Origin: Amoebidium appalachense
Taxonomy: Eukaryota; Protista; Ichthyosporea
Assembly: GCA_963693365.1 (NCBI GenBank)
Contig: CAVNZM010000006.1
Coordinates: forward strand, 9,551,355-9,615,354
Reading direction: 5' to 3'
Length of the DNA: 64,000 nt
The notes beneath the pieces are model-generated. The model saw only the letters and a program-made list of their open reading frames with translations, ran no database searches and was not told the DNA's origin. The translations under genes were made by a program, and so were the position numbers. Below, one piece after another: positions 3,902 through 53,650 of this stretch (its first letter is position 1; each line of letters starts with the position of its first letter).

Positions 3902-5148
3902 GTTGTTTGCCCTACAGAGTCACGTAGGCCGGGGCTGGAGAAAGTCAAAAAGCGTCATAACCGAGGTTGATCTCTTACATGTGGTAAGCTGATGCCGAGA
4001 ACTGAATAGAGGAATACTGGCAAGAGGGGCAATTTCTAACAGGCTTGTGTAGACGCCTGGTCAAGCGGAAACATGAGGTGGACAATGAAGTTTACCCAAG
4101 CTCTATGCACAAGGTATATGCATAAAATGCGTGGCACAAGGTCTAACGAGTCCTGCACGCTACCTGCCACAGCACCTGCCACTCCTTCTCTAATCTATGT
4201 CAAAAATCCTATTCACTAACAGCTGTAGCCGAGACATCACCTAAGCCCCCCTCAAGATGAAAGCAAATTTAGCTTTCTTCGATAGCTCTGGAATTAAAAA
4301 AGAAATAGCACACTTGAGCTCATTTGCTGTTCCGAACTCTACAGTACTGTCACACATCACAGCCAGCGTGATTGTGGGCCACAGAGTGTGGCTCAGAAGG
4401 GTGAGCCACAGGAATGCAGCACTCTGTGTTAGAGCCTGCGCTGATTGGTAGAAAATGTCGCCTAAAGATAAAGGACCATGATGTGATTGGCTGGATCTAA
4501 AAAAACAAAAGATCGATCATAGATGACTCTCACGTGCCACGTGGACGTGTGCAGCACAACGCACATGCATGTGACTGTGTGTGAGCAAAGAAGAACAGCA
4601 GCAGTTTTTATTCAGATCAAGTATTCACCATGGTTCCTCTCAAAAATATAAAACACATACAGAACACAAAAGAACAGTGCGCTGAATTATGCAGGATGTA
4701 TTGTGCTGTTGCTACACACTTGCTCATTGCAACAAATTGCCAACAGATAATATTGCCAACATAGAAAGCATAATTTCACCCCATGGCCATTCAAGAAAGA
4801 AAAAAAAGGCAAAAAGGTACTGTAATGTCTATGCAACAACTCTAGCACAAATGAAATCTAGCATATGCCGGCCAGCGGCACTGGATAATCGGACTTTAGC
4901 TGTCGTATGGTTTGAAAAAGCTTGTAACACATTCGCGAACATTGCCTGTCTCATGAGGGTCTATTTATAGCAACCGTTGCCAACAACAATTTTTTTTTTT
5001 TAAATATCAACAATTTTTATACAAACATTTAGCTGCTTAGACTACCATCTTTGTGCAGCACAGGGTTATGTGCCGTTTATGCTGACCAAAACATGGTATC
5101 TTACAGTTTAGATTTGGTTGTGTGTGTGTGGTGGTGGTGTGGCGGGGG

Positions 5149-5213
5149 TTTTGAATGCGTCAAAAAGTACAAAGTACACAAGAACAAACGGATAACACGA
5201 TGCAGAATGCAAG
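5149..5213 (-). mobile_element. Short 3' fragment of the (C)n-associated repeat family
   Basis: ttttgaatgcgtcaaaaagtacaaagtacacaagaacaaacggataacacgatgcagaatgcaag is nearly identical to the start of the copies at 8910, 22611 and 23065, and is preceded by a G-run on +. Confidence 0.8.
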
Positions 5214-7694: not shown

Positions 7695-8378
7695 TGGATA
7701 GAATACATTGCACAGCCACAAAGCCACAAACAGAAAGAAAAGCACGGTGGACAGAATATCAAAAAAGGCTGTGTGCAAACGCAAACAGAGCCCACAAAAA
7801 AAATGTTGGTTTTAGCGCAGGCACGCACCGTGTTGAACCAGAAGCCCTCCAGCTTCTCCTCCCTCTGGTTCCTATGGCTGATGATCTGCCACTTGCCCCC
7901 GGCCTCGTTTGCCGGGTCCTCCCACATGGGCTGGATACCGTACTTGAACAGGTGGTAGTTGCTGCCTGCTACAAGCTTCAGCGCTGGCACAATGCTTTTC
8001 CATACCCTGTGAGTGGGTGGTGTCATACTTGTTAGAGTTGGAAAATAGTCAAAACCTTCGAGCTGTTGTGTTTGCTCCTCATGTGTGGGTACTGCACTGT
8101 AATTAATCGATACTTGATCCAAAAACGAGGTTGGAACCCCCCCCCCTCCTCCTCCCCCCCCCCCCCCCTCCCCCCCGGAGCGAACTCCCCCACGAACACA
8201 CCCACACACACGCCAAAAAATAGAAGGGAGGGAGAGAGTGAGGGGAGAGGAGTGTGGGTGGGTGGGTGGGTGGGGGTTTGAATGTGTCATAAAGTACGAA
8301 GTACACAAGAACAACGGATAACACGATGCAGAATGCAAACCTTACATGAGAGTATGCATAATAAGCAGAGCCCATCCT

Positions 8379-8432
<54 letters not shown>

Positions 8433-8776
8433 GATGTATGCGTTAGAGGGTTGGAAATATGGAGGAGACAACAAAGAGCAACAACAAAGCGTCACAAAGG
8501 TGGGGAATCCAAAATCAAACAATTTAAGCGTGCAGGCAGAAGACACTTGAACAGAGCCCATCATCAGGGGGGTTCGGGGAGGGGGGGAGGAAGAGAGCAG
8601 CAGGAAGAATGTGGTGTTGGCCAAATGCATCCAACAAGCTGAATCGACCCCAAGAAAAATGAAAATGCAAGTGCGAGGAAGTTCAATGATACATCTTTCG
8701 GTGTGTCTCGTCTTCCAATTAACCTAAAAAAATGGATACACCGTGGCGGAGGTGGTGGCCGAAGTTGTATTTGATT

Positions 8777-8871: not shown

Positions 8872-9711
8872 GTTTGTTTTTGGGTGTGTGTGTGGGGGGG
8901 GGGGGGGGGTTTTGAATGCGTCAAAAAGTACGAAGTACACAAGAACAAACGGATAACACGATGCAGAATGCAAGCCATACATAAAGAGTATGCATAATAA
9001 GCAGAGCCCATCCTCAGGGGGGGCCCACGTCATCCACAGTACCCGAGTTTCGACCTATTCCCCTCGTTAACGAAACCCAACTCAGATACTGTTTCACTTG
9101 AACATGAGTAGGTCACCCGTCTTGATCAGAGACGAGCAGGGTTGCTTATGCAGGCAAGGGCAGTGGGAAAGGCCGGGGGTTAAAGTTGCAGCAGTAAGCA
9201 GAAGCAAGAAAAATATAGATAGGAACTCAGGAGACGGGGCTTCTAGGAAGCTCCCCCGTCGATACCTAAGTCGATACTTCCCTGGCTAACATACTACACC
9301 AGCTGAAAAGAATTAAGTCCCGAAGGCCACAGAATTCGTAATCAGAGGGGAAAATATGAGATTTGACCCACGCCGCAGGGTAGTAACACGCTTACTAGGG
9401 CGGAACTTTATCGTCTTCGAACGGAAAGCTATGCCCCCGGATGTCAGCCGGAAATATGGTATCACCCATTGCTTTGGGCTTGAAAAAAGCCAAACCGATA
9501 GTCCGAGTTATGTTACGCCGGCGGGTAACATGCCGCATGGGTTCCAAGGGAGCTGTCGCCAACAGAGCGGTGTGTGCATGCGTGCGCGTAACGCAATGTG
9601 TGAAGTGTGTCTATAGCTATGAAAGGGGGTATGCAGAAGTGGACAGATGAAGTGTGTGGAGAGAAAAACAGTAAGAAGAAAAGTAGACACCGGTATGTGC
9701 AACCCCGCACA

Positions 9712-22575: not shown

Positions 22576-22612
<37 letters not shown>

Positions 22613-22805
22613 TTGAATGCGTTAAAAAGTACGAAGTACACAAGAACAAACGGATAACACGATGCAGAATGCAAGCCATACATAAAGAGTATGCATAATA
22701 AGCAGAGCCCATCCTCAGGGGGGGCCCACGTCATCCACAGTACCCGAGTTTCGACCTATTCCCCTCGTGGGGCAAACACACACACAGGTGCTTTTGATGA
22801 CGTTT

Positions 22806-22836
<31 letters not shown>

Positions 22837-23022
22837 ACTCAGAAAGGGATTGTGGATGCGTTGAGAATTCAAAAGGGAAGAGCAGATATTGGGGTGGAGG
22901 ATGAGGGGGAGGGGGGCCGGGGTGGCAAGTGTTACAGAGTACAACGTACACATCCATGATGGACAACACAATGCAGATTGCAAATCACAGATTAAGAGTA
23001 GGTACGGATGGGGAAAAAGGCC

Positions 23023-23062
<40 letters not shown>

Positions 23063-26000
23063 GTTTGAATGCGTCCAAAAAGTACGAAGTACACAAGAAC
23101 AAACGGATAACACGATGCAGAATGCAAGCCATACATAAAGAGTATGGGGGGGGGGGGGGGGGGGGGGGATTGGGTCTTGGACATAGTTGCAGCTGAGCAC
23201 AGGGGTGGGTAACGTGCAGTGCACAGAATGAGAGGTAAAAAGAGGGAGCATGGCTAGAAAGGATCCGAACTAAACTCTAATAAAAAAACAGCTCTGGAGA
23301 AATGCTCACACTATCATCCCCCTCAAACACCCCCTTATCCAAGCAGCATTATATTCGGAAACCTTGTCCTGCAGAAGACAAGAGAAAGACTGACAGACAA
23401 ACAGCACCCCCCCCCCCCCCCATCACCCTTCTCCCTCCCTGCTGCTCCCGAAGTGACATTCCATTCCCACTTCTTTATATCCACACTCCCACACTCCCAC
23501 ACTCCCACGTGGGCACACGAGCACACCCACACCCACGCACACACACACACACAAATGCACGACCCACTCCACCAACACACGCACATTCATGCCTACGCAC
23601 CAACACAGCAACCAATCCACCCAACTACCCAACTCCAATAGCTTGACCTCCCCAAACAAACAATTCCTTTAAGACACCCACATTTCCGCCACACATCACT
23701 GACCACCATTCCATGAGCATCCCCCCCCCCCTCCCCCCCCCCCCCCCCCTCCCCCTTCCCCCACCCCACCCACCCACCCACCCACACACACAAAAAAAAA
23801 AAAAAAAAAAGGGCACGAACCGTATGTTTCAGTGTAGACTCGGCGTTTGCGACCAGGACAAACACATCCGCATCGTGGCAGAACTTATCGATCCAGCTGT
23901 CATAGTGCTCGTCCATGTCCAGGCCCGGGGTGTCTATCAGGCACACCCCGTCCCCCAGTAGGCGGCACACCTTCTTGTCCCAGAACACCTTGACCATGGC
24001 CATGCTGGCACTGGGCTTGGCTGCCTGCCCGTTCTCCTCACTCCCCTGCAATCACAATCACCCAGTAACTAAACTGCCCATGGAGGCGAACAACGTACCG
24101 AATACTGTCCGAAACAGCACACATGCGCCCAGACACACACAAACACCAGTGGTAGCTTAAGGGAGAATGTGTTGAGAGGGTGGTGTTGCTGACGTAGACC
24201 GGGGCTTGCAAGCATGTGGTTGAGCTTGGTGGGACCCAATATTGCGCACATTGCACTATTTGAATGCAGAGTGCATGTGTATGCTTTTTGCTCTTGATAC
24301 CCAATCCTCCCCCCCCCCCTCCCCCCCTTGCCCCACACACACACCTCCCCCCCCCCCCCCCCCCCCCTCCAAAAAGGGGCTTGCTCGCAGCTTATCTACC
24401 TCTGCCTTCCTCGTGCTCTTCTCCCCCCAGCTGCTCCTTGTCACCTTGCCCAACCTCTCCCCCTCCCCCTCTTTTCCTCCCCTCCCTCCTCCCGGGCCCT
24501 AATCAACCCCCCTCCTCCCCCCCCCTCCCCCCTCTGCACACACAAACAGTATTAACTTTACCCCCTCCTCTCCCCCCTCGCCCCCTCTTGCCACACAAAA
24601 CCAACACCACCACCACCTAAGCCCACACCTCCTCCCATTGTTGCCGGTTTTCTAGAACGCGTTCTTTGCCACTACTCGGCAACAAGCACGTACCATGTAG
24701 CAATCTTGTTTGTGTGTTTGCAAATTGCCAGGGTGGTGGCAAGAGAAGAACAAGCAAGAGAGAAATCCGAAAGAGAAGGGAAATCAGAGGGAAGGGTGCC
24801 CGGAGGAACAGAAAAACGGGGAGGGGGGACGGAGAGGGGGCAAGAGAGGGAGAGCGGGGAGAGGGAGAGAGGGGGGAGAGGGAGAGAGAGAGGACGGGGG
24901 GGGGGGGGGGGGGGGGGGGGGTGAGAGTGAGAGTGAGAAAGAAGGGTGGGAGGGAAGAAAGAGAGTTAGAGAGAAGTTGGGAGCGAGGAAGGGAAGGGGA
25001 GAGAGGGGGGGGGGGGGGGGGGGGAGGGGGGGAGGGGAGAGAGGTGGTGGGAGGGAGGGACTGAGGGCACAGAGAAAGGGGGAGACCGGGGAGAGAGAGA
25101 GAGAGAGAGAGAGAAGGGGAGAGGGGGGTGGGAAGGAGAGAGTCGCAGAGAGACAGAGAGAGGGAGGGGAGGGGGGGGGGGGGGGGGGGGGGAGATAAAG
25201 AGACGGAGAGGCGTGGGGTGCAGGCGTCCAGAACACAGCTGATGTTCTTTGCACCTCTTTCCCTTCCCCACCTCCTCCCCCCACCCCCTCTCCATCCCTT
25301 TTCCCCCACCCACCCACCCTATACTCTTATTATACCCTTCTCTACACCCTACCACCTCAGCCCAGCCCAACCTCTGCTCTTTCAGTTCCTTCCAACACAC
25401 AAGCCCATCATAATCTCACTTTGAACCATCCCAAACACACCCTAATGAAAAGGATGGATGGATGATGTTCAGCAACCAACCAGGCATGCTGTCTCATGAA
25501 CAAGCACGGATACCAAATACACCCACCTTTGCAAGAGCGTGAGCCACCTGTTTCACATTGGTGATGCTTTGCCTTTGTCCCCCCTCACCCACCATCATAT
25601 ATGGCTCCTCCTCCGTTCCCTCAACCGAGCAGAAGCAATTTGTGGTGTGGCCGATACCAACAGGTAGGATTGTCTGCCATAACATGCTGTTGATAACTGT
25701 GCTTTTACCGTTGCTTGTATGGCCCACAAAAACCACTTTCATGTTGTCCCGCCGCAAAAGCGCAACAATGTTGTCTACCACCTCTTGAAATTCATGTATG
25801 GCCTTCTGCTCCTTAATCGTCGGGTCTGTGTCTGTGGAGAGGGAGACGGAATAAATACTCAACAACAATACCTGAACCCGGAAAATTGCAATACATTCAA
25901 TTTGGGCTGCTAGCTGTCATTCATGAATTCAGCTTTGTTCAATTCGATTTTCTTGCTCCAAGAGAATCAATCGTCATCACCCCCAACCCCTCACCCCCTC

Positions 26001-27731: not shown

Positions 27732-28820
27732 GGGGGGGGGAGGGAGGGGGGTACGAGACAGGTACGTGACACTATGATAATTCTCGGTTTACCTGATTTG
27801 GACTCGTCGCAAGCCGCTGCACACGTTCAGCTGGTGAATTTGCCGCATAATATAAGCGAACATGCATAAAGTTGTTGTTATAATTGCTCTCAACCATGGC
27901 AACACACTGTGCTAAAGTTGATCAGCAGCACTTTATTGATATCGATGCTCGAATCCCTTGTTACACCCGCATAATTCAGGAAGCAAAAAAAAAAAAAAAA
28001 AAAAGGTCCATTAGGAGTATTTAATTGGTGTGTGCGGCCTCGAGATACAGAAGTGTAGTTGCTAATCCTACAAAATAGGCAATTGTAAACCTGGCTTACA
28101 CATAGAACGAAAGCCCCTAATAATTATGAAGCAAAAACGAACCTACATCAAAACTCAAGTCAGAGAAGGTCCAGCTTAAAGAGGCATGACGCAGTTGGTG
28201 CTGGCCACGAAGCCACCTCAATCATGTTGATTATATCTCGCTAATCACACACGAGGGTGCTGGAAGCGATTTAGTGATGGAGTGATCACACTCCCGTCAC
28301 TCAGTGGCCTCTCAGCTGCCGCCCCCCCACCACGTTAGCCATTAGAATCAACCCCTGCAGCAACACCCTCAAATCTATCATTATTAACCCCGGGCTGGGA
28401 AATATATTCTTTGATCATACACCCCTTACCAAGATCACATTATATCAGGGAGAATCCTGCACAAACCTACTTTTCCTCCCACCCTGCAAAGCAGATCTCC
28501 TTTTATCCTTTCATCACAAACAGGGTGTACCTGCATACACACCCGACCACCCGCCATAATCCCCCTCCACACGCACACGCACACGCGGTGCACAGATACC
28601 GGGCATCAGCAACATCCCCCCCGCCCCCCCCCCCCCCCCCCCCCCCCTCCCCCCTCCCCCCGTCCCCCCCTCCTGCTCTTTCCACAGTCCTATCACACAG
28701 GGAATAGATAGGCGCAGGAAGAGAGGGGCCGTGAAAACGCAGCACCGCAATTATCACATACACCACGTGTCAACTCTGCTTCGACATCGCGACACACATC
28801 ACATGCACAGTCAACGATAC

Positions 28821-28998
28821 CTCTTTGACGGCGTCAGCAAAGCGCTTCTTGTGGCCCCAGCTGTTGATGCCGATGTCGTCCAGCATCTGCTTGAGGTCCC
28901 CCTCGGCCTGGTCCAGCATCTCACCCGTGATGTTGTTCTCACGCAGTTTGGCCGCTATCATCCGGACCTCAGATACGGGGTGGTTGCTCGCCCAGCTG

Positions 28999-29090
<92 letters not shown>

Positions 29091-29979
29091 CGCGCGCGCG
29101 CGCGTGTGCGTATGGTATTGGCGGTGATTAGTGTAAGTATATCTCGTGCATATCTCTACAAACCGTCTGCCTGCTGAAGGCTAAGGCCCAATGGATAAAG
29201 GATAGTCTTTTGACCAAATGGATTCCTAGGGGTAGGTAAACAGGTTGCTCGAATATCGCAAGAGACGGAAGGTTTGATATGCGTTCCAGAATACAAGTAC
29301 AAGTGCACGAGGCACAACACGATGCAGGCTTTGCGGAAGGCAGCATGGAGCACGCAAAGAGAGAGTCATTGTTCTCGCACCGACAGCAGCATTCATTGAC
29401 CTGGGAAGAACACCATGTGTAGGGCTTGAAATGGAATACGAAAAAGCCCGCAACAAGGGGACAACGTGGTGGGGAGGGGGGGGAGGGCAAGAATGTGAGA
29501 AAGAGTACGAAGTACGCATTCACGACGGATAAAACAGAAGAGACTTTGCACAGTCCACACCAAGAGGGGGGGTGAGGCGGGGAGTGAGAGAGGACGAGGG
29601 GGGGAGGGGGGGGGGGCATGTGTGCATTAGGGGGTTGGATTATGGAGGGGAGACCAAAAAACAAACAGGGGGTTGAAAAGAGTACACTACGAAGAGCAAA
29701 TTCAAACCAGATAACGCAATGCACACCAAAAGTAAGCAACATAAAAATACCCCATATGAGAAGGGGGCAGGGGGGGATACCAAGAGTCACATGCACACAA
29801 ACATGCATGCCTACATATTCACAGCACAGCAGGGCCAAAATGTGCCGGCCAACCCAAACAGAATGAATACATACGTCAGCACGTCGTCCTCCGACCAGGT
29901 GTGGTAGTCGCCAGCAGGCTGGGTGGGTTGTGGTGCCCCATCTGCCCCCATTGCTGCTGCTGGGGCCGGCATGCCCATA

Positions 29980-30013
<34 letters not shown>

Positions 30014-31297
30014 TCCCGGGCATCTGGCCCGGCATCTGACCCGGAACCTGGCCCGGCATACCATATGGGAACATTGGGTTGAAGGGCATTGGGCCAGGGG
30101 TGGGCATGCGTGGAGCCTGGGCAGGGGCATTGGGATTTGCAGCCTGCTGGGCCTGGGCCTGGGCCTGGGCCTGGGCCAATGCCATGGCCATGAACAGCTG
30201 CGGGTTGACGTTGAAGCCGGGGGGCAGGCCCATGTTGGGGGGCATGCCGGCCATCATGGGGTTGTACATGGACGGGAAGCCCCCCATCATCCCCGGCGGG
30301 CCTGGCTGGGTGGGCACAGGGGGGCGCTGTGCACCGGCATTCTGGAGATTGGCAAGGCCGGCCATGCCCGAGATGGGGGAGCTGATCTTGGCTGGGGCAC
30401 TGGCCTTGAGCTTGGTCTCGGATGAACCCTGCAGTGAAACAGGTATGCCTGTCAGTATCCAGGCATAAACACCAGAGAGAAATGCCGCAGAGCAAAAAAG
30501 CGCTGACAATAGTTATCTGCAGTGGCAGCCAAACACGGAGGGGAGAAGAGCACCCTGCAGGTTGCGCACAAATCAGGAGAAAGGAACAGGACAGGTCTTT
30601 ACCTCATCGTCGTCCCAGAAGCTCATCTGGCGCTCCATCTGCTGCACCACGTGGTCGGCCTGCTGCTGCTGGCGCTGCGCCGCCTGCTGCTGGCGCATCT
30701 GCTCCTGCAGCAGCTGCAGCTGCGCCAGCTGCTGCTGCTGCTGGCTGCCCGGGGCCTCTGGGGCCTGCTGGCGCTGCATCTGGCCCTGCATCAGCTGCTG
30801 CAGCTGCTGCTGCATGGCCTGGCTCTGGCCCGTGGCCCCAGCCAGGGCCGGGGATGCCCCCTGCTGCTGCTGGGTGGGGGCCAGTGCCTGCAGGGCTTGC
30901 TGGCTGGCCTGCATGCCCTGCTCCCTACTGGCCACCGCCAGCCGCAGCTGCGCCAGCTGTGCCTCCAGCGTGGCCTGCTGCGCCCCGGCATCAACACTGG
31001 GCCCTGGTATCGTGGCTGGCACGGCAGGGGCAGACATGGGGGCCACGGGCTGGCCAAAGACCCCCAGGGGAGGCTGGGCTAGGCCGGGGGCTACGGACGC
31101 AGAAACGGGGGTGGGCAGTGGGAGGGTGACGGGGGACTGGGGGAGAGGCAGGTTGGGCATGCGTACAGCTGCAGGGGCTGTAGTAGGCACTGTGGGAGCA
31201 ACGGCTGGCGGCGCAGCTACAGAAGGAGAATAGACCGTGGCAGGGGTGCTCTGGGGCATTGATATTTGGGCCTGCGCCGGCTGCTGTTGTGGTGGCT

Positions 31298-31383
<86 letters not shown>

Positions 31384-31438
31384 TGGAGAGAAAGAGAGAG
31401 AGAGAGGGGGGGGGGGGGGGGGGGAGAGAGAGAGAGAG

Positions 31439-31470
<32 letters not shown>

Positions 31471-31666
31471 CATTAGCGCATGTGTGTGTGCGTGTGTGTG
31501 CGTGTGTGTGATTCCGTGAGCTGTGGTGCTAATGCAATTGTGTATAAGAATGTGTCTGCATGTTTTCCTGTATCTGTGATTGTGTGTCTATGGACGTGTG
31601 GTGTGGAATGTGTGTGTGTGTGTGTGTGTGTGTGTGTCTGTCTCTCTCTCTGTGTGTGTGTGTTTG

Positions 31667-31707
<41 letters not shown>

Positions 31708-32194
31708 TGCATACGTGCGGGCGTGTATGTGTGTGCATGAGGGTTGTACGTATGAGTGAACGGACGTCCACGGTGCAATGCAGGAATCGAAGCAGCAGGA
31801 TAGGTCGCTGCACATCACAGGAATCCGAGCACAATCTTTAAATCCTTCTTGGCTGTCTTTCCCCCCCCCCCCCCACCCCACCCCCTCCCCCCCCACACAC
31901 ACACAGGCGCGCACCACCCCGTCCCCCATCACCCTTCCATCCAGAACAACAAGAAATCCACATCGAGTTGCCACTACTTCATTCATAGACAACACCGGCA
32001 ATGGTACGGGCACAGAAAATGCGTTTCGCACCTACGCACATGTGAATGAACACCCATGTCATTACACTTGAGCCACATTTAACAAGACTAGGAAAAGGAT
32101 AAAGCAAATATTCGAGGAGAGGGGTGGGCTGGGGGAGTTTAGAGTGTGGTAAATGGTACTATGTACAACTACACAATGAGAAAGCCGGGAGGAA

Positions 32195-32235
<41 letters not shown>

Positions 32236-32318
32236 AATCTTGTAGAAGATCACATCAACTCTCGCATGGAGAAAAAACTGATACCAAAGCCTTTCGGCGA
32301 AAAAAAAAAATGGGGACG

Positions 32319-32358
<40 letters not shown>

Positions 32359-34630
32359 CAGGTAACAACTGCACGCACCTTAGCAACAGGCTCAACCTTG
32401 CCATGTTTTGCCTCGTATCTGTCTTTAAGCACCTTTAACAGCACCATCTTATACTTGTGAATCTCCTTCGTCTCGCCATTAAGGTGATCGTATGTGCAAT
32501 ACCGCCCAGTACGGCCATAACCTGATCGTTCCGATAACTCGCACACCTGGTTGTTCCTAGCGCGCTCGCACGGCTGAACCTTGTAATTGTGGGGGTGGTA
32601 TTGCTTGGCCGTGTGCCCGGCATTAGGCCCCAAAGCGAGAAAATCGTCGGTGCGGGGATCATACTCCACAGGGTCACGCTTGTCAATATACTCTCCAGGA
32701 TTGGCAAGATCTTCGTGGTATCCGGGGCACCTATAGTACAACGTGTTAGTTTTGGGCATGCCTGGGCACTTAGGAAGAATGTCGGGTTCATAAAAACTGC
32801 AATGGAGATCACACATGCAGGAAGGGCTCGAGTGTGAGAGCAAGGGATGAGGTATGTCCACAGATCAATACAAAAACGATCTACACTGGAGAGTGGCGCT
32901 AACCCCAATGGGGAGGGGGGGAAAGGGTGTGTGTGGGGGGGGGGGGGGTTTGAATGCGGAACACGGTACGAAGTACGCATACACGATGAGAAGGATGGTG
33001 CAGGACACATGCAAAGGCAAACATTCAAGTATGCAACATCATCGCGCACAGTATGCGTCATAAGCAGAGCCCACCCTCAGGGAGGGCCCAAGTCATCAAT
33101 TGCGTCTGAGTTTCGACCCCTTAGCCCGCGTATATACGACTCTCCAACTCAGGCAGCAGCATCAACTGAACTTGGGAGGGTCAACCCGTCTTGATCAAAG
33201 ACGACCAGGGTTGCTTATGCAAGCAAGGTGAGCAAAACGGTGAAGATGTGTGTGCAAACTAATGCAGTGCAGCGAAAAATGTGTATGTGCTTACAGATGC
33301 ACGACACAGAGCAACCATGCCCGGTTGCATGGAAGTAAAGCGGCCTCCACACAGTGGTCTGTCCTGAAAGGACACCTCTGAAAGAAGACTGGGGGGGTTT
33401 GAATGCGGAACACGGTACAAAGTACGCATACACGATGAGAAGGATGGTGCAGGCACATGCAAAGGCAAACATTCAAGTATGCAACATCATCCATGCGCAC
33501 AGTATGCGTCATAAGCAGAGCCCATCCTCAGGGAGGGCCCAAGTCATCAATTGCGTCTGAGTTTCGACCCCTTAGCCCGCGTATATACGACTCTCCAACT
33601 CAGGCAGCAGCATCAACTGAACTTGGGAGGGTCAACCCGTCTTGATCAAAGACGAGCAGGGTTGCTTATGCAAGCAAGGTGAGCAAAACGGTGAAGATGT
33701 GTGTGCAAACTAATGCAGTGCAGCGAAAAATGTGTATGTGCTTACAGATGCACGACACAGAGCAACCATGCCCGGTTGCATGGAAGTAAAGCGGTCTCCA
33801 CACAGTGGTCTATCCTGAAAGGACATCTCTGAAAGAAGACTGGGAGGGTTTGAATGCGGAACATGGTACGAAGTACGCATACACGATGAGAAGCATGGTG
33901 CAGGACACATGCAAAGGCAAACATTCAATTATACAACATCATCCATGCGCACAGTATGCGTCATAAGCAGAGCCCATCCTCAGGGAGGGCCCAAGTCATC
34001 AATTGCGTCTGAGTTTCGACCCCTTAGCCCGCGTATATACGACTCTCCAACTCAGACAGCAGCATCAACTGAACTTGGGAAGGTCAACCCGCCTTGATCA
34101 AAGACGAGAAGGGGTTGCTTATGCAAGCAAGGTGAGCAAAACGGTGAAGATGTGTGTGCAAACTAATGCAGTGCAGCGAAAAATGTGTATGTGCTTACAG
34201 ATGCACGACACAGAGCAACCATGCCCGGTTGCATGGAAGTAAAGCGGTCTCCAACACACCGAGTCACAGACGGGTTTCTCACCCTCTATGATACCGCGTT
34301 CCAACGGATCTATACCCGGGCTGTACAAGATACACCAACTTTAGTCTACAATGCGCCGTGGAGACCACGGAGCTTTGAAACTTGAGCTTTTCCCGCTTCA
34401 CTCGCCGTTACTAGGGTGTGTGTGTGTGTGGGAGTGGGGGGGGGGGGACTCAAAACGCCGTACACAGTAAGAAATGCAATTCATACGGGATAGTGCAATG
34501 CACACACACATCGTATGGAACGGAAGTAGAGCCTATTCTCAGGGGGAGGTCAAGTCATCCTCAGGATCCAAACTTCGACCCAGTCAAGCAATGCCCGAAA
34601 ACCAACTTCAATATCACTTCTATCTCATTG

Positions 34631-34677
<47 letters not shown>

Positions 34678-35208
34678 GGTGGGGGAAGGCGGGGCAGGGG
34701 AGGGGGGAGGGGGGGGTTGTTGTGGAACCCTGCACGAAGTACAATCACACGATGAGAAACACTGTACCAGACACATGCAACGACATGCAACATCTGCAAT
34801 GCCAACAATATGCGACATAGTAGAGCCCATCCTCATCGAGGCCCAAGTCAATCACAACTGTGTTTCGAACCCTTTCACGAAATCCCCACACCATCGGGGA
34901 GAGGGGGGGGGGGGGGGGGGGGGGGGGGGGCTTAGAGGGAGGTTGGGACTTACTGATAACGGTCGACACAAATTTTCTCCTTGCAGGGTTTGGTTTTAAA
35001 CTCGGTCATCAGGTAGTAGAACCATTTATCTGCAGAAGAAAATATTACACAGTGAGCAAAGACGACGAGAGGGATGGAGAGGGGGGAGGTGTAGACATAG
35101 ATGAGCATGCAGTACACTGTAAATGTCACAAAGAAACACACAAAGCAAACGTCTCACACCAAAAACGATATGAGAGAGGCGCAGAAGAGGGGGGAAGACT
35201 GAAGGGGC

Positions 35209-35288
<80 letters not shown>

Positions 35289-35713
35289 ATGTGTGACCAA
35301 AATCAACTAGGCGAAAAGAAAACATAACACGTGAGTGTGGAATTATCACAAGATACCCTTTACTAACCCGGGTGCGAGGCTGCACGTGCGAGCACAGACA
35401 GAACACACACACACCACATACAACTCGCACTGACACGGGCCACAATTGAACAAAACCACAAGGCAGAATTGAGATTTATCCAAAAAGGTAAATGGACACA
35501 CACACACACACACACAAACACATACACAGTCATTCGGACGAGCCCACAAGGAACCAATTATATGCTATACACACCCACGACACTCCCCCCCCACTCCCCC
35601 ACCCCCCGGCGTGAGACACCGGCAAGCCCTCCACAGAACACACGAAAAAACACACACACACAGAGCCAAGCACACACATACAGACGCACAAGCCGTGCAC
35701 GCATGCCCAACCG

Positions 35714-35758
<45 letters not shown>

Positions 35759-36743
35759 ACCACCGTAACCACTACCACACACCCACACAAAAAAAAAAAA
35801 GAAAGAAAGAAAGGGGAAAAAAAAGAAAAAGAAAAAAAAAGTAAAAAAAGAAAAAAGAAAAAGAAAAAAAAGGGGGGAAAGAAAACATGTGTACGCACAC
35901 ACACACACACGTACACCACAACAACAAAAGACACATGGTTCCGGAGGCAAGGACTGAAACAGGAGCAACTTACAGGTGATGGGCAGAGGAGGATAAAAGA
36001 TTCCGTCAAACACAGCGCCAGCATTGCGCCAGCTTGGCACATAGCGTTCACCAGGATGAAGAAACGCACAGGCCTTCTGGGTGCAATCTTTGCCACGGTC
36101 ACACTTGTTAGTCTTGTACACATCCGGATGAAACATGTAATCCACGGTACGTTTATCATTCACCTGACTGGCTAAGTAGCGCCAAGGCGGATACTCGTTC
36201 CCTTGTATACGAACTTCACGGCGATTTTTTCTTGGGATCATACTCGAACATGGTGCGATTAAGCTTGTTGACCTCGTCGGCAGACAAAAGCGGCGGAATC
36301 CCCGCAACTGGTTTCTTAACCGCCTTCTTAGTAACCACTGCAAGGGGAAAAGAAAAACAGTTAGCACCTGTCGACAGTTGGACGAGCAACAAAAGTGACC
36401 ACGAACACCTTGAACGTGTATTAATCAGCGGTCGCTTTTCTGTAATCAAGCTTTTTTATAACAAAAAGTAAATAATTGTGTACAGAAGGAACTTTTCACT
36501 TTAGTGCACTTACATTCAGGCCAAGTTCTTGGACACATGCACAATTAACTCCAACAAACAACATGCACTCAGCTACAGATCCAACAAAACCGAAAGCGAG
36601 AGCAAAGGGATCGCAAAGCAATACCCACCTTGCATGTCAGATAAATCATCTTTGGCGGCAGCACTAGCGTTTGCATAACTAGGCTTTACACTAGTACCAC
36701 CACCCTTCCCTCCACTCAACAAAGCAAATCGGTTATCACCCAT
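28821..36743 (-). CDS. Unkempt-like CCCH zinc-finger protein with Q/P/M/G-rich region and C-terminal SAM domain (paralogue A; one frameshift; last exon not located)
   Basis: Exons 36629-36743, 35974-36337 (extra A in the run at 36225-36230), 34954-35029, 32379-32730, 30603-31295, 29875-30428, 28821-28995. Fingers [34 protein letters not shown] and [17 protein letters not shown] resemble Unkempt YKT-type fingers. SAM: [42 protein letters not shown]. Confidence 0.8.
32948..34255 (-). repeat. Head-to-tail tandem array of three ~450 bp units (second subfamily of the repeat family; retrozyme/pLTR-like)
   Basis: Units start with tttgaatgcggaaca at ~32949, ~33398 and ~33849 and differ by only scattered substitutions and small indels. 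They share blocks with the 8910 copy (ataagcagagcccatcctcagg, gagtttcgacc, caactcag, cccgtcttgatca.agacgagcagggttgcttatgca). Confidence 0.92.
34505..34875 (-). mobile_element. Two degenerate copies of the structured repeat
   Basis: agagcctattctcagggggaggtcaagtcatcc...cttcgacc (34528-34580) and cgaagtacaatcacacgatgagaa...agagcccatcctcatcgaggcccaagtca...gtttcgaacc (34735-34872). Confidence 0.65.
35214..35285. repeat. (TA)n microsatellite
   Basis: Uninterrupted TA run. Confidence 0.95.
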
Positions 36744-38135: not shown

Positions 38136-39039
38136 TTGTTTTTGGTGTTGGGAACCGGGAGAAGAAAAGGGGGAATGATGATCGGATACAGTAGCTACTC
38201 TTCCACTATCATAGTGAGTACTGAGGTTTTACAAATATACAAGGTACGGTGTGTCGATCTCTCAGCAAAACTAGAAGACTAAATAAGAATAATGAGCCGT
38301 TAAACTTTTTCGTGTATACGTATAATTACTTCGCTGAACCGATACCATAATTGACCATTATTTGTTTATCAGTACTACAGCGACCATTTCCAGTGGTGCC
38401 AGAAAAAATCTTTGACATAACAGTCGCAATGAAGCCTAAATGGCATGACGAAAATTCGTTTATACAAAAGTGCTTATACCGAATAAACTGTTTGACACTA
38501 TATATACGACCTAAGAAAACCAATTCATGCATGCGCATTTACATTTGGCATGCCTAGAAAATATCACTGCTATCCCTCTCACCTCCACCACACACTACAA
38601 GTGCACACAAAACCAGGCAGGACAGCCTACCAAAAATCCCCACCAAGTTAAGGTACCTTAACTGTCTACAACCAATCGTACCACCCAATAACCAGGAAAT
38701 GTGAATAAAACGGTCCAAGAGCCCAATAAGCAATGCATTAGAAAAGGACTGTACAACAGAAAACGTGGTTAAAATCCTAGCTAAATCTAAGGCTCAAAAC
38801 CCCCACTCCTCTGTTGCCGGTAAAGACTGCAGCAGCTTCGAGCAGAATCCACCACAGCCTTTCATGGGTTGGTAGAACGAAGCTGCAAAAAAGGAACACT
38901 TTCTATTAGCTTTGAAACTGGGCTTCCCTTAACTTTCCATCCATCGTATCCTCAATCCCTACCACTACCCTGGACACGAATCCCCCCCCCCCCCCCCCCC
39001 CCCCCCCCCTTCCCCTCTCCCTCCCCCTCCCCCCTCGAG

Positions 39040-39074
<35 letters not shown>

Positions 39075-39095
39075 TGCGCGCACACTAGGGCGCGT

Positions 39096-39159
<64 letters not shown>

Positions 39160-39620
39160 GGGCACGCGCACACACACACACAAAGAGGGCGTGTGCGCAC
39201 AAACACTCACATACAAACCACAACTAGTAAGTCATACTCAGATTTGCGCAAAATCTCATCATTGCTTCCCCCCCTCCCCCCCCCCCCCCCCCCCCCCCCC
39301 CCTTTCGCCCGCCCGCCCGCCCCCCGCCTGCCTGCACAAGAGCAACGGCTATTACATTACCATTCCCCGTCACAGTTTTCCACCTTCCTACCAGGCACAC
39401 ACATCACAAATTGCCATCAGTATGCATACAACGGATACACCTTATCCCCTTCCCCCCCCCCCCCCCCCCCCCCCCCCCCCTTCCCCCCCTACACACACAG
39501 GAATCACCACCACCACCACCACCACCACCACCACCACCACATTTCCACTGCCCAATCGGACATCCCTTTCCAGTCCCTAAGCCCAATCATGCCCCACCCC
39601 GGGCACCATGCAGCACACAC

Positions 39621-46301
<6,681 letters not shown>

Positions 46302-49982: not shown

Positions 49983-53650
<3,668 letters not shown>

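Follow-up and report, generated by a model that had tools for sequence, protein, structure and literature searches.

A hammerhead ribozyme core whose conserved blocks follow one another in the order cleavage site, GAAA and CUGAGGA (S-G-C) is carried by a 451-bp repeat of Amoebidium appalachense, dispersed, 5′-truncated and partly tandem, which we found in a 64,000-nucleotide stretch of contig CAVNZM010000006.1 (assembly GCA_963693365.1, positions 9,551,355 to 9,615,354), hereafter the window, whose own numbering is used throughout. The hammerhead feature is real, and its cleavage is predicted from the sequence; the core letters, their order, the pairing potential, the compensatory changes between two subfamilies (A and B), the tandem layout and the shared 3′ ends are direct observations. 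We consider it probable that this S-G-C core is a split one, predicted to be self-cleaving, in a repeat that likely moves by a Penelope-like cycle. Its likely novelty, as judged from the letters, is a core divided across the RNA ends between A9 and G10.1 and residing in a genomic repeat, with cutting predicted. To a bolder reading we incline a little: that this is a natural hammerhead outside the published scheme of six permutations, a ring closed by a k-turn and opened inside the core, possibly switched by an L7Ae-family protein, which would represent the missing ribozyme of Naiad-type elements, extend to what is likely a unicellular relative of animals and run a retrozyme cycle.

The first-pass annotation had placed the three core strands on the minus strand of the middle unit of a tandem array, and they are indeed located there, with GUU at 33599-33597, GAAA at 33565-33562 and CUGAGGA at 33531-33525. 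Its central claim, a hammerhead core in a non-circular order, was borne out in three copies, and the block orders CGS, GSC and SCG that define types I, II and III were not found in the window. The core letters CUGANGA, GAAA and UH are present in units 1 and 2 of the array and in a copy at 9 kb, while the core of unit 3 reads CUGAGGG (A9G). Standard descriptors had been expected to miss the motif, and Rfam yielded no hammerhead match in the window or in 32800-35000. A descriptor permitting all six orders, written after the motif had been seen, gave three matches in the window, all S-G-C and with U16.1 at 34050, 33598 and 9080, and these are homologous and represent two lineages. On 1000 block-shuffled windows it produced 13 matches of any order in 12 windows, two of them S-G-C, and a shuffled window gives such a match about once in 100 or less. 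The predicted cut sites proposed earlier, 33597/33596 and 9079/9078, follow from the core, and a remnant at 8567 reads CUGAUGA as described.

Around the core, stems I (3-4 bp), II (6 bp, with an upstream partner) and III (6-13 bp) can be paired, and GUU is a slower cleavage triplet than GUC. For the middle unit, both strands of the stem III first proposed are present, and the stem is weakened and broken there by C33604, which is private to unit 2; nearly all contigs of the sequencing runs that aligned to the unit, and unit 1, carry U at this position. Unit 1 (34125-33957) is therefore the better model. A canonical type I reading was rejected because GAAA is not within reach 3′ of the core, and a CUGAUCA sequence in the loop of hairpin H1 of B was rejected as a second core because it is missing G8.

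The array, belonging to subfamily A, extends over 32942-34258 on the minus strand, comprises 2.9 units of 451 bp, is truncated at its 5′ side and ends in a C run. Each unit bears one hammerhead motif and the core is intact in two of the three, namely unit 1 (domain 33957-34125, with the majority letter in stem III and a predicted cut at 34049/34048) and unit 2 (33505-33672, the interval originally annotated), with unit 3 (33054-33221) likely being inactive as a result of its A9G change. Subfamily B is represented by a copy at 8904-9152, which also ends in a C run and carries a complete ribozyme at 9152-8991, and by a 5′-truncated copy at 22605-22768 retaining only blocks G and C. Two further copies, C1 (34702-34897, with a damaged core) and C2 (34450-34628), are diverged and decayed; a short remnant, D (2860-2905), covers the block C region and the CUGAUGA remnant occupies 8547-8573, all of these lying on the minus strand. 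A search of the window with a profile built from six of its copies gave ten matches with E<1e-7, every one on the minus strand and three of them corresponding to the units of the array, together with weaker remnants. The 3′ ends of ten family copies run into C or CA tracts, mostly after a CAUUCAAA-like end, and their 5′ ends are variable, so that the repeat combines 5′ truncation, a fixed 3′ end and insertion at (C)n/(CA)n, as has been described for Chlamys elements. Additional short 3′ fragments of the family occur at 5144-5213, 8272-8387 and 23058-23133, with weaker ones at 22920-22983, 29271-29328, 29483-29535, 32133-32186 and 52518-52557, and nearly all of these short pieces have the minus-strand orientation, in which the neighbouring genes are also read. 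Contigs aligning to one unit numbered 9028, 13327 and 5067 in three whole sequencing runs and seven in a fourth, totals that reflect many variant copies rather than a copy number, one run possibly being the source of the window itself; among the runs listed for the repeat none is an RNA run.

The proposed fold is described here for unit 2, 5′ to 3′ along the minus strand. It would begin with a closing helix P0 (33663-33670, pairing with 33517-33510 with a probability of 0.98), followed by a CCC at 33659-33661, by hairpin H1 (33635-33657) placed immediately before G10.1 (33633), by the putative 5′ strand of stem II (33628-33633, partner 33571-33566), by Eckert's helix I, which links stems I and II at their far ends (33621-33627 with 33544-33538), by the bulged strand of a k-turn (33612-33620, reading UCA, bulge GUU, GA; partner 33549-33544) and by block S (33593-33606), which holds the 5′ strand of stem III, GUU and the 3′ strand of stem I. 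A self-complementary 10-nt linker (33580-33589) would lead from S to block G (33554-33571), with the 3′ strand of stem II, GAAA and the 3′ strand of stem III, after which the second strands of the k-turn and helix I would precede a segment (33525-33540) containing the 5′ strand of a helix Y, the 5′ strand of stem I and CUGAGGA. The last part, downstream from A9 (33510-33524), consists of an extra U, a partner for P0′ or Y, and the 3′ strand of P0. The whole layout would correspond to an SGC ring opened between A9 and G10.1, where the RNA ends lie, with the hairpin and the closing helix inserted at the opening and the k-turn at the hinge. P0, H1, helix I, the k-turn and stem III would form first as a scaffold, which the k-turn would bend back such that the loop of stem III docks on the basal junction via two pseudoknots, stem I (33596-33594 with 33534-33532) and stem II, the latter using the upstream GACCC (33633-33629) as its 5′ strand.

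In this split-core reading, helix I has 7 bp in both A and B, with one double and one single change between them, and stems I and III also show one double change each. A split-core descriptor recovered the same three window copies and matched three of 2000 shuffled windows, or one of 2000 when H1 was required. By nested folding programs, for which pseudoknots fall outside the scoring, the nested scaffold is 0.9 kcal/mol less stable than the minimum-energy structure in unit 1 and 3.3 kcal/mol less stable in B. The shortness of stem I, at 3-4 bp, and the slower GUU triplet count against activity of the split core. At the hinge, both A and B carry the k-turn consensus, in which a bulge of 3 nt precedes tandem G.A and A.G pairs, a pattern that occurred in 1.5% and 0.8% of shuffled linker pairs. 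The bulge is GUU and the 3b:3n pair U.U in A, and they are AGU and A.G in B. This consensus defines the standard k-turn, whose included angle is about 50 degrees, and among ribosomal k-turns A:U at -1b:-1n is rare (PMC5689011). Since -1b:-1n is A:U in the repeat, folding may need a protein (15.5K/Snu13), and protein-assisted kinking of a hinge with this sequence pattern is plausible.

The same pairs could in principle be formed between two molecules or between neighbouring units, either by docking of a loop on a junction or by joining through palindromic linkers, and we regard this as improbable, though it is the best of the competing explanations. It draws on the tandem layout of the units, on the dimeric cleavage known for axolotl retrozymes (PMC7229834) and on the S-G linker, which is fully self-complementary (10/10) in A, B and C1 despite differing sequences (33589-33580, 9073-9064 and 34882-34873). 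These palindromes were noticed after the fact, however, and head-to-head pairing of linkers would bring block C no nearer; moreover, B was found as a solo copy, and in order to fold back a monomer would need a k-turn at the hinge, where the consensus is found, and for this reason the monomer is favoured. The loop of H1 in A (33649-33642) is also palindromic, and linker and loop possibly constitute a dimerisation signal.

Slightly less probable again is that the ribozyme is a relic or is mostly silenced, its fold being kept for recognition by a reverse transcriptase or a k-turn protein and its core shut by helix Y. The strand after A9, besides its pairing with P0, can pair either with the CCC at 33659-33661 (P0′) or with GGGCCC at 33540-33535 (Y), using GGG 33523-33521 in the former case. 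Helix Y, which may either extend stem I or close off the core, does not vary between A and B, and changes that preserve its pairs occur in the remnants C2 and D, that in D being compensatory; together with its inner pairs the helix can hide the core, with a pair probability of 0.6 in unit 1 and 0.2 in B. Silencing would suit copies residing in introns in sense orientation, such as the array, and A9G is found not only in unit 3 but also in remnant D. Against loss of function, none of the 14 core positions is changed between A and B (P = 0.055), although the ribozyme domains of unit 1 and the 9-kb copy differ by 29 substitutions and seven gap columns alongside 133 identical positions. No core position varies at a level of at least 5% in the aligned contigs either, which is a weak argument as fewer than one would be expected.

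The position of the opening in the core depends on the 5′ strand of stem II. When the upstream GACCC is paired with GGGUC, none of the six pairs is lost in either subfamily, although one pair has changed on both sides and another on a single side, and B-type loose ends of the aligned contigs show U.G, the intermediate of the covarying pair. The stem II first annotated, GGCUC immediately after the core with GGGUC, loses two of six pairs in B with zero compensatory changes, and its 1-nt register has a G.G mismatch; it is probably not real, and of the pairings earlier described for the 9-kb copy only the 13-bp stem III and the 3-bp stem I stand. Duplex energies are -9.4 (unit 2) and -7.3 (B) kcal/mol for the upstream helix vs -5.4 and -2.2 kcal/mol for the annotated one, and -6.6 vs -5.4 kcal/mol in unit 1. 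The 5′ strand of stem II is thus likely to be the upstream GACCC and not the strand after A9, and because that segment pairs better and covaries, the core is likely to be opened between A9 and G10.1, a conclusion for which the compensatory changes come from two independent full copies. A plain type-SGC hammerhead, with stem II taken from the strand right after CUGAGGA and the GACCC pairing acting as an off-switch, is very unlikely: its stem II is formally possible (5-6 bp in A and 4 bp in B), an extra U past A9 is typical of HRIMA-1, and the decayed C1, whose upstream strand is missing, fits the 1-nt register well (7/7 pairs, by eye) and could not pair with an A-type GACCC, but this stem is weaker than both rival helices as well as lacking compensation in B, and in the Naiad tails of coral and octopus the letters that follow the core are unable to pair with block G at all.

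The S-G-C order alone is not new, since it has already been published as type SGC by Eckert et al. (2023, PMC10085705), in whose study five such RNAs cleaved in vitro at 0.007-0.13 per minute. Type SGC, comprising HRIMA-1 and variants, shares with the repeat the block order, the pseudoknotted nature of stems I and II, the helix that connects these two stems distally, the extra U past A9 and the occurrence of GUU sites. It differs in that stem II follows directly after the core, the S-G linker has about 3 nt and, in the parts of that paper available, no genome of a known organism is given as a source, the motifs being almost all metatranscriptomic and the only candidate from a known organism's genome being of GCS order. 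In the present case, by contrast, stem II likely takes its 5′ strand from upstream, A9 and G10.1 are separated by two helices and blocks S and G by a linker of 18-21 nt, the ring is closed by a k-turn consensus, and the motif is carried by a genomic repeat; a stem II strand 0-2 nt past CUGANGA that covaries with its partner, the mark of type SGC, was absent from the two independent copies. The scheme of six permutations assumes that CUGAnGA and the adjacent stem strands stay together (PMC10085705), and a core opened at A9/G10.1 breaks this block rule. The PK hammerhead (Zhan et al. 2024, PMC11300833) resembles the repeat in forming helix II as a pseudoknot, but there the CUGAUGA loop connects helix I to the pseudoknot without a break, giving a pistol-like connectivity, and the core is unopened at A9/G10.1 in the text available. 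Core insertions of 1-2 nt are described along with the PK form (PMC3088659, PMC12192606, PMC11300833). In the literature searched, mostly outside subscription papers and bioRxiv supplements, no hammerhead opened at A9/G10.1 was found, nor, mostly outside subscription papers, any SGC-type motif in genomic repeats.

The mobile elements that the repeat closely resembles include the Naiad and Chlamys Penelope-like elements, for which Craig et al. (2021, PMC8557442) describe microsatellite bias and head-to-tail non-autonomous forms and, in the portions available, no canonical hammerhead, recording only 'HHR_core' or 'HHR_half_core'. With these the repeat shares 5′ truncation, head-to-tail non-autonomous copies, the (C)n/(CA)n insertion bias and the lack of a canonical hammerhead; they carry a reading frame with GIY-YIG at the N terminus and RT at the C terminus, no counterpart of which was found among the 78 frames scanned, and the stem I of the repeat has 3-4 bp rather than 6. 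In the supplement of that paper, three Naiad consensus tails, one from a coral and two from octopus, show by eye the split-core wiring; these are the records preceding the Naiad_Aacu, Naiad_Ovul and Naiad_Omin headers and hence, by file order, Naiad_Amil, Naiad_Obim and Naiad_Ovul. In each there is a hairpin, and the segment that matches the letters before GAAA, and would form stem II with them, is 6 nt long and lies upstream; the cleavage site is GUA, stem I has 6 bp, and the strand following the core pairs upstream of the hairpin. Stems I and II of the three tails differ in sequence while remaining fully paired at 6 bp. The last 420-600 bases of the tails were viewed and the octopus pair had been picked by a core-motif search; among six Naiad ends picked blind, the wiring was clear by eye in one and the other five gave no clear fit. 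The motif was seen in none of six Chlamys ends, by eye, and six 10-mer core searches of the available supplement gave a single, unrelated match.

Other Naiad tails in the same supplement present different structures. A spider tail (the record before the Naiad_Lpol header, by file order Naiad_Smim, annotated 'HHR_half_core') contains by eye a complete type-CSG hammerhead with block C intact, which would be the same ring opened elsewhere. The oyster and acorn-worm tails (before the Naiad_Sglo and Naiad-2_Skow headers) have in common a conserved, structured 3′ motif without the CUGANGA/GAAA pair in the portion seen, perhaps an RNA element of another kind.

Non-LTR retrozymes (Cervera and de la Pena 2020, PMC7229834; Li et al. 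2026, bioRxiv 10.64898/2026.07.22.740005) likewise consist of tandem units, 150-450 bp long and each bearing a single hammerhead, and are linked to Penelope-like elements, and their circular RNAs have been demonstrated; they carry type I hammerheads and have <50% G+C. The repeat, unlike these, is not of type I and is known from its sequence alone. The 451-bp family is likely to be a non-autonomous Penelope-like retrozyme. By analogy with the non-LTR retrozymes, cleavage behind the GUU of unit 1 and of unit 2 would free a monomer of 452 nt. A host ligase would probably close this monomer into a circle, and a Penelope-like reverse transcriptase could copy it in trans, priming at G-rich DNA via the C-rich 3′ end; reverse transcription of such a circle would yield tandem, 5′-truncated inserts.

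The enzyme partner would possibly be either Naiad-type or endonuclease-less. A scan of 78 of the 375 candidate frames in the window revealed no reverse transcriptase domain. A 71-codon open frame on the minus strand (9398-9610) ends just upstream of the B copy, from which it is separated by about 245 bases (9153-9397) that are not common to subfamily A, and the two segments could belong to an autonomous partner, the frame as its tail and the 245 bases as its 3′ UTR. What we presumed to be a motif-level resemblance of this frame to the end of a Penelope reverse transcriptase was not upheld: no Pfam family was detected, 24 candidates included no homologue, and phmmer gave five multi-stretch matches of which the four examined were unrelated repeat or AAA proteins.

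A working split core, if true, would overturn the assumption that CUGANGA is inseparable from stem II, and hammerhead searches would be missing a class. It offers a direct way to examine the apparent lack of a hammerhead in Naiad-type retrotransposons, and it would take non-circular hammerheads beyond the viroid-like RNAs, placing them in mobile elements of chromosomes. A ribozyme gated by a k-turn would, moreover, be a ready-made protein-responsive switch.

Outside this genome, a two-block pattern had no match in metagenomes and an rRNA pattern none in viral contigs. A block C pattern matched 69 metagenome and 40 viral loci, none of which is a family member, and the split-core descriptor fits none of the 109; three of these loci (candidates L049, L067 and L100) are ordinary hammerhead matches of type I order, unrelated to the 451-bp family.

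At its 5′ end the array abuts a eukaryotic large-subunit rRNA fragment (34259-34417, minus strand, limits approximate; RF02543, 66 bits, model positions 68-248, of which the fragment at these limits covers about 75-240), which sits between a (CA)n tract and the array, and the fusion is possibly such as would be left by a template switch onto rRNA during reverse transcription. The array lies within an intron (34953-32731) in the sense orientation of the gene. This gene (28560-36424) and a second one (38824-44953), both on the minus strand, are paralogous SAM-domain genes with Cys/His-rich exons and are 44% identical in one exon; the repeat cluster in the shared intron is confined to the first, the matching intron of the paralogue giving no family match in the profile search. 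Introns across the window are dense in long poly-G/poly-C runs and in CA/GA microsatellites, and the 451-bp family may have used some of the intronic C runs as targets or left them as its tails. The host is likely a unicellular relative of animals, as other genes in the window include an animal-type mitofusin and a class I-like PI3K, while the best relative of the mitofusin is only 36% identical.
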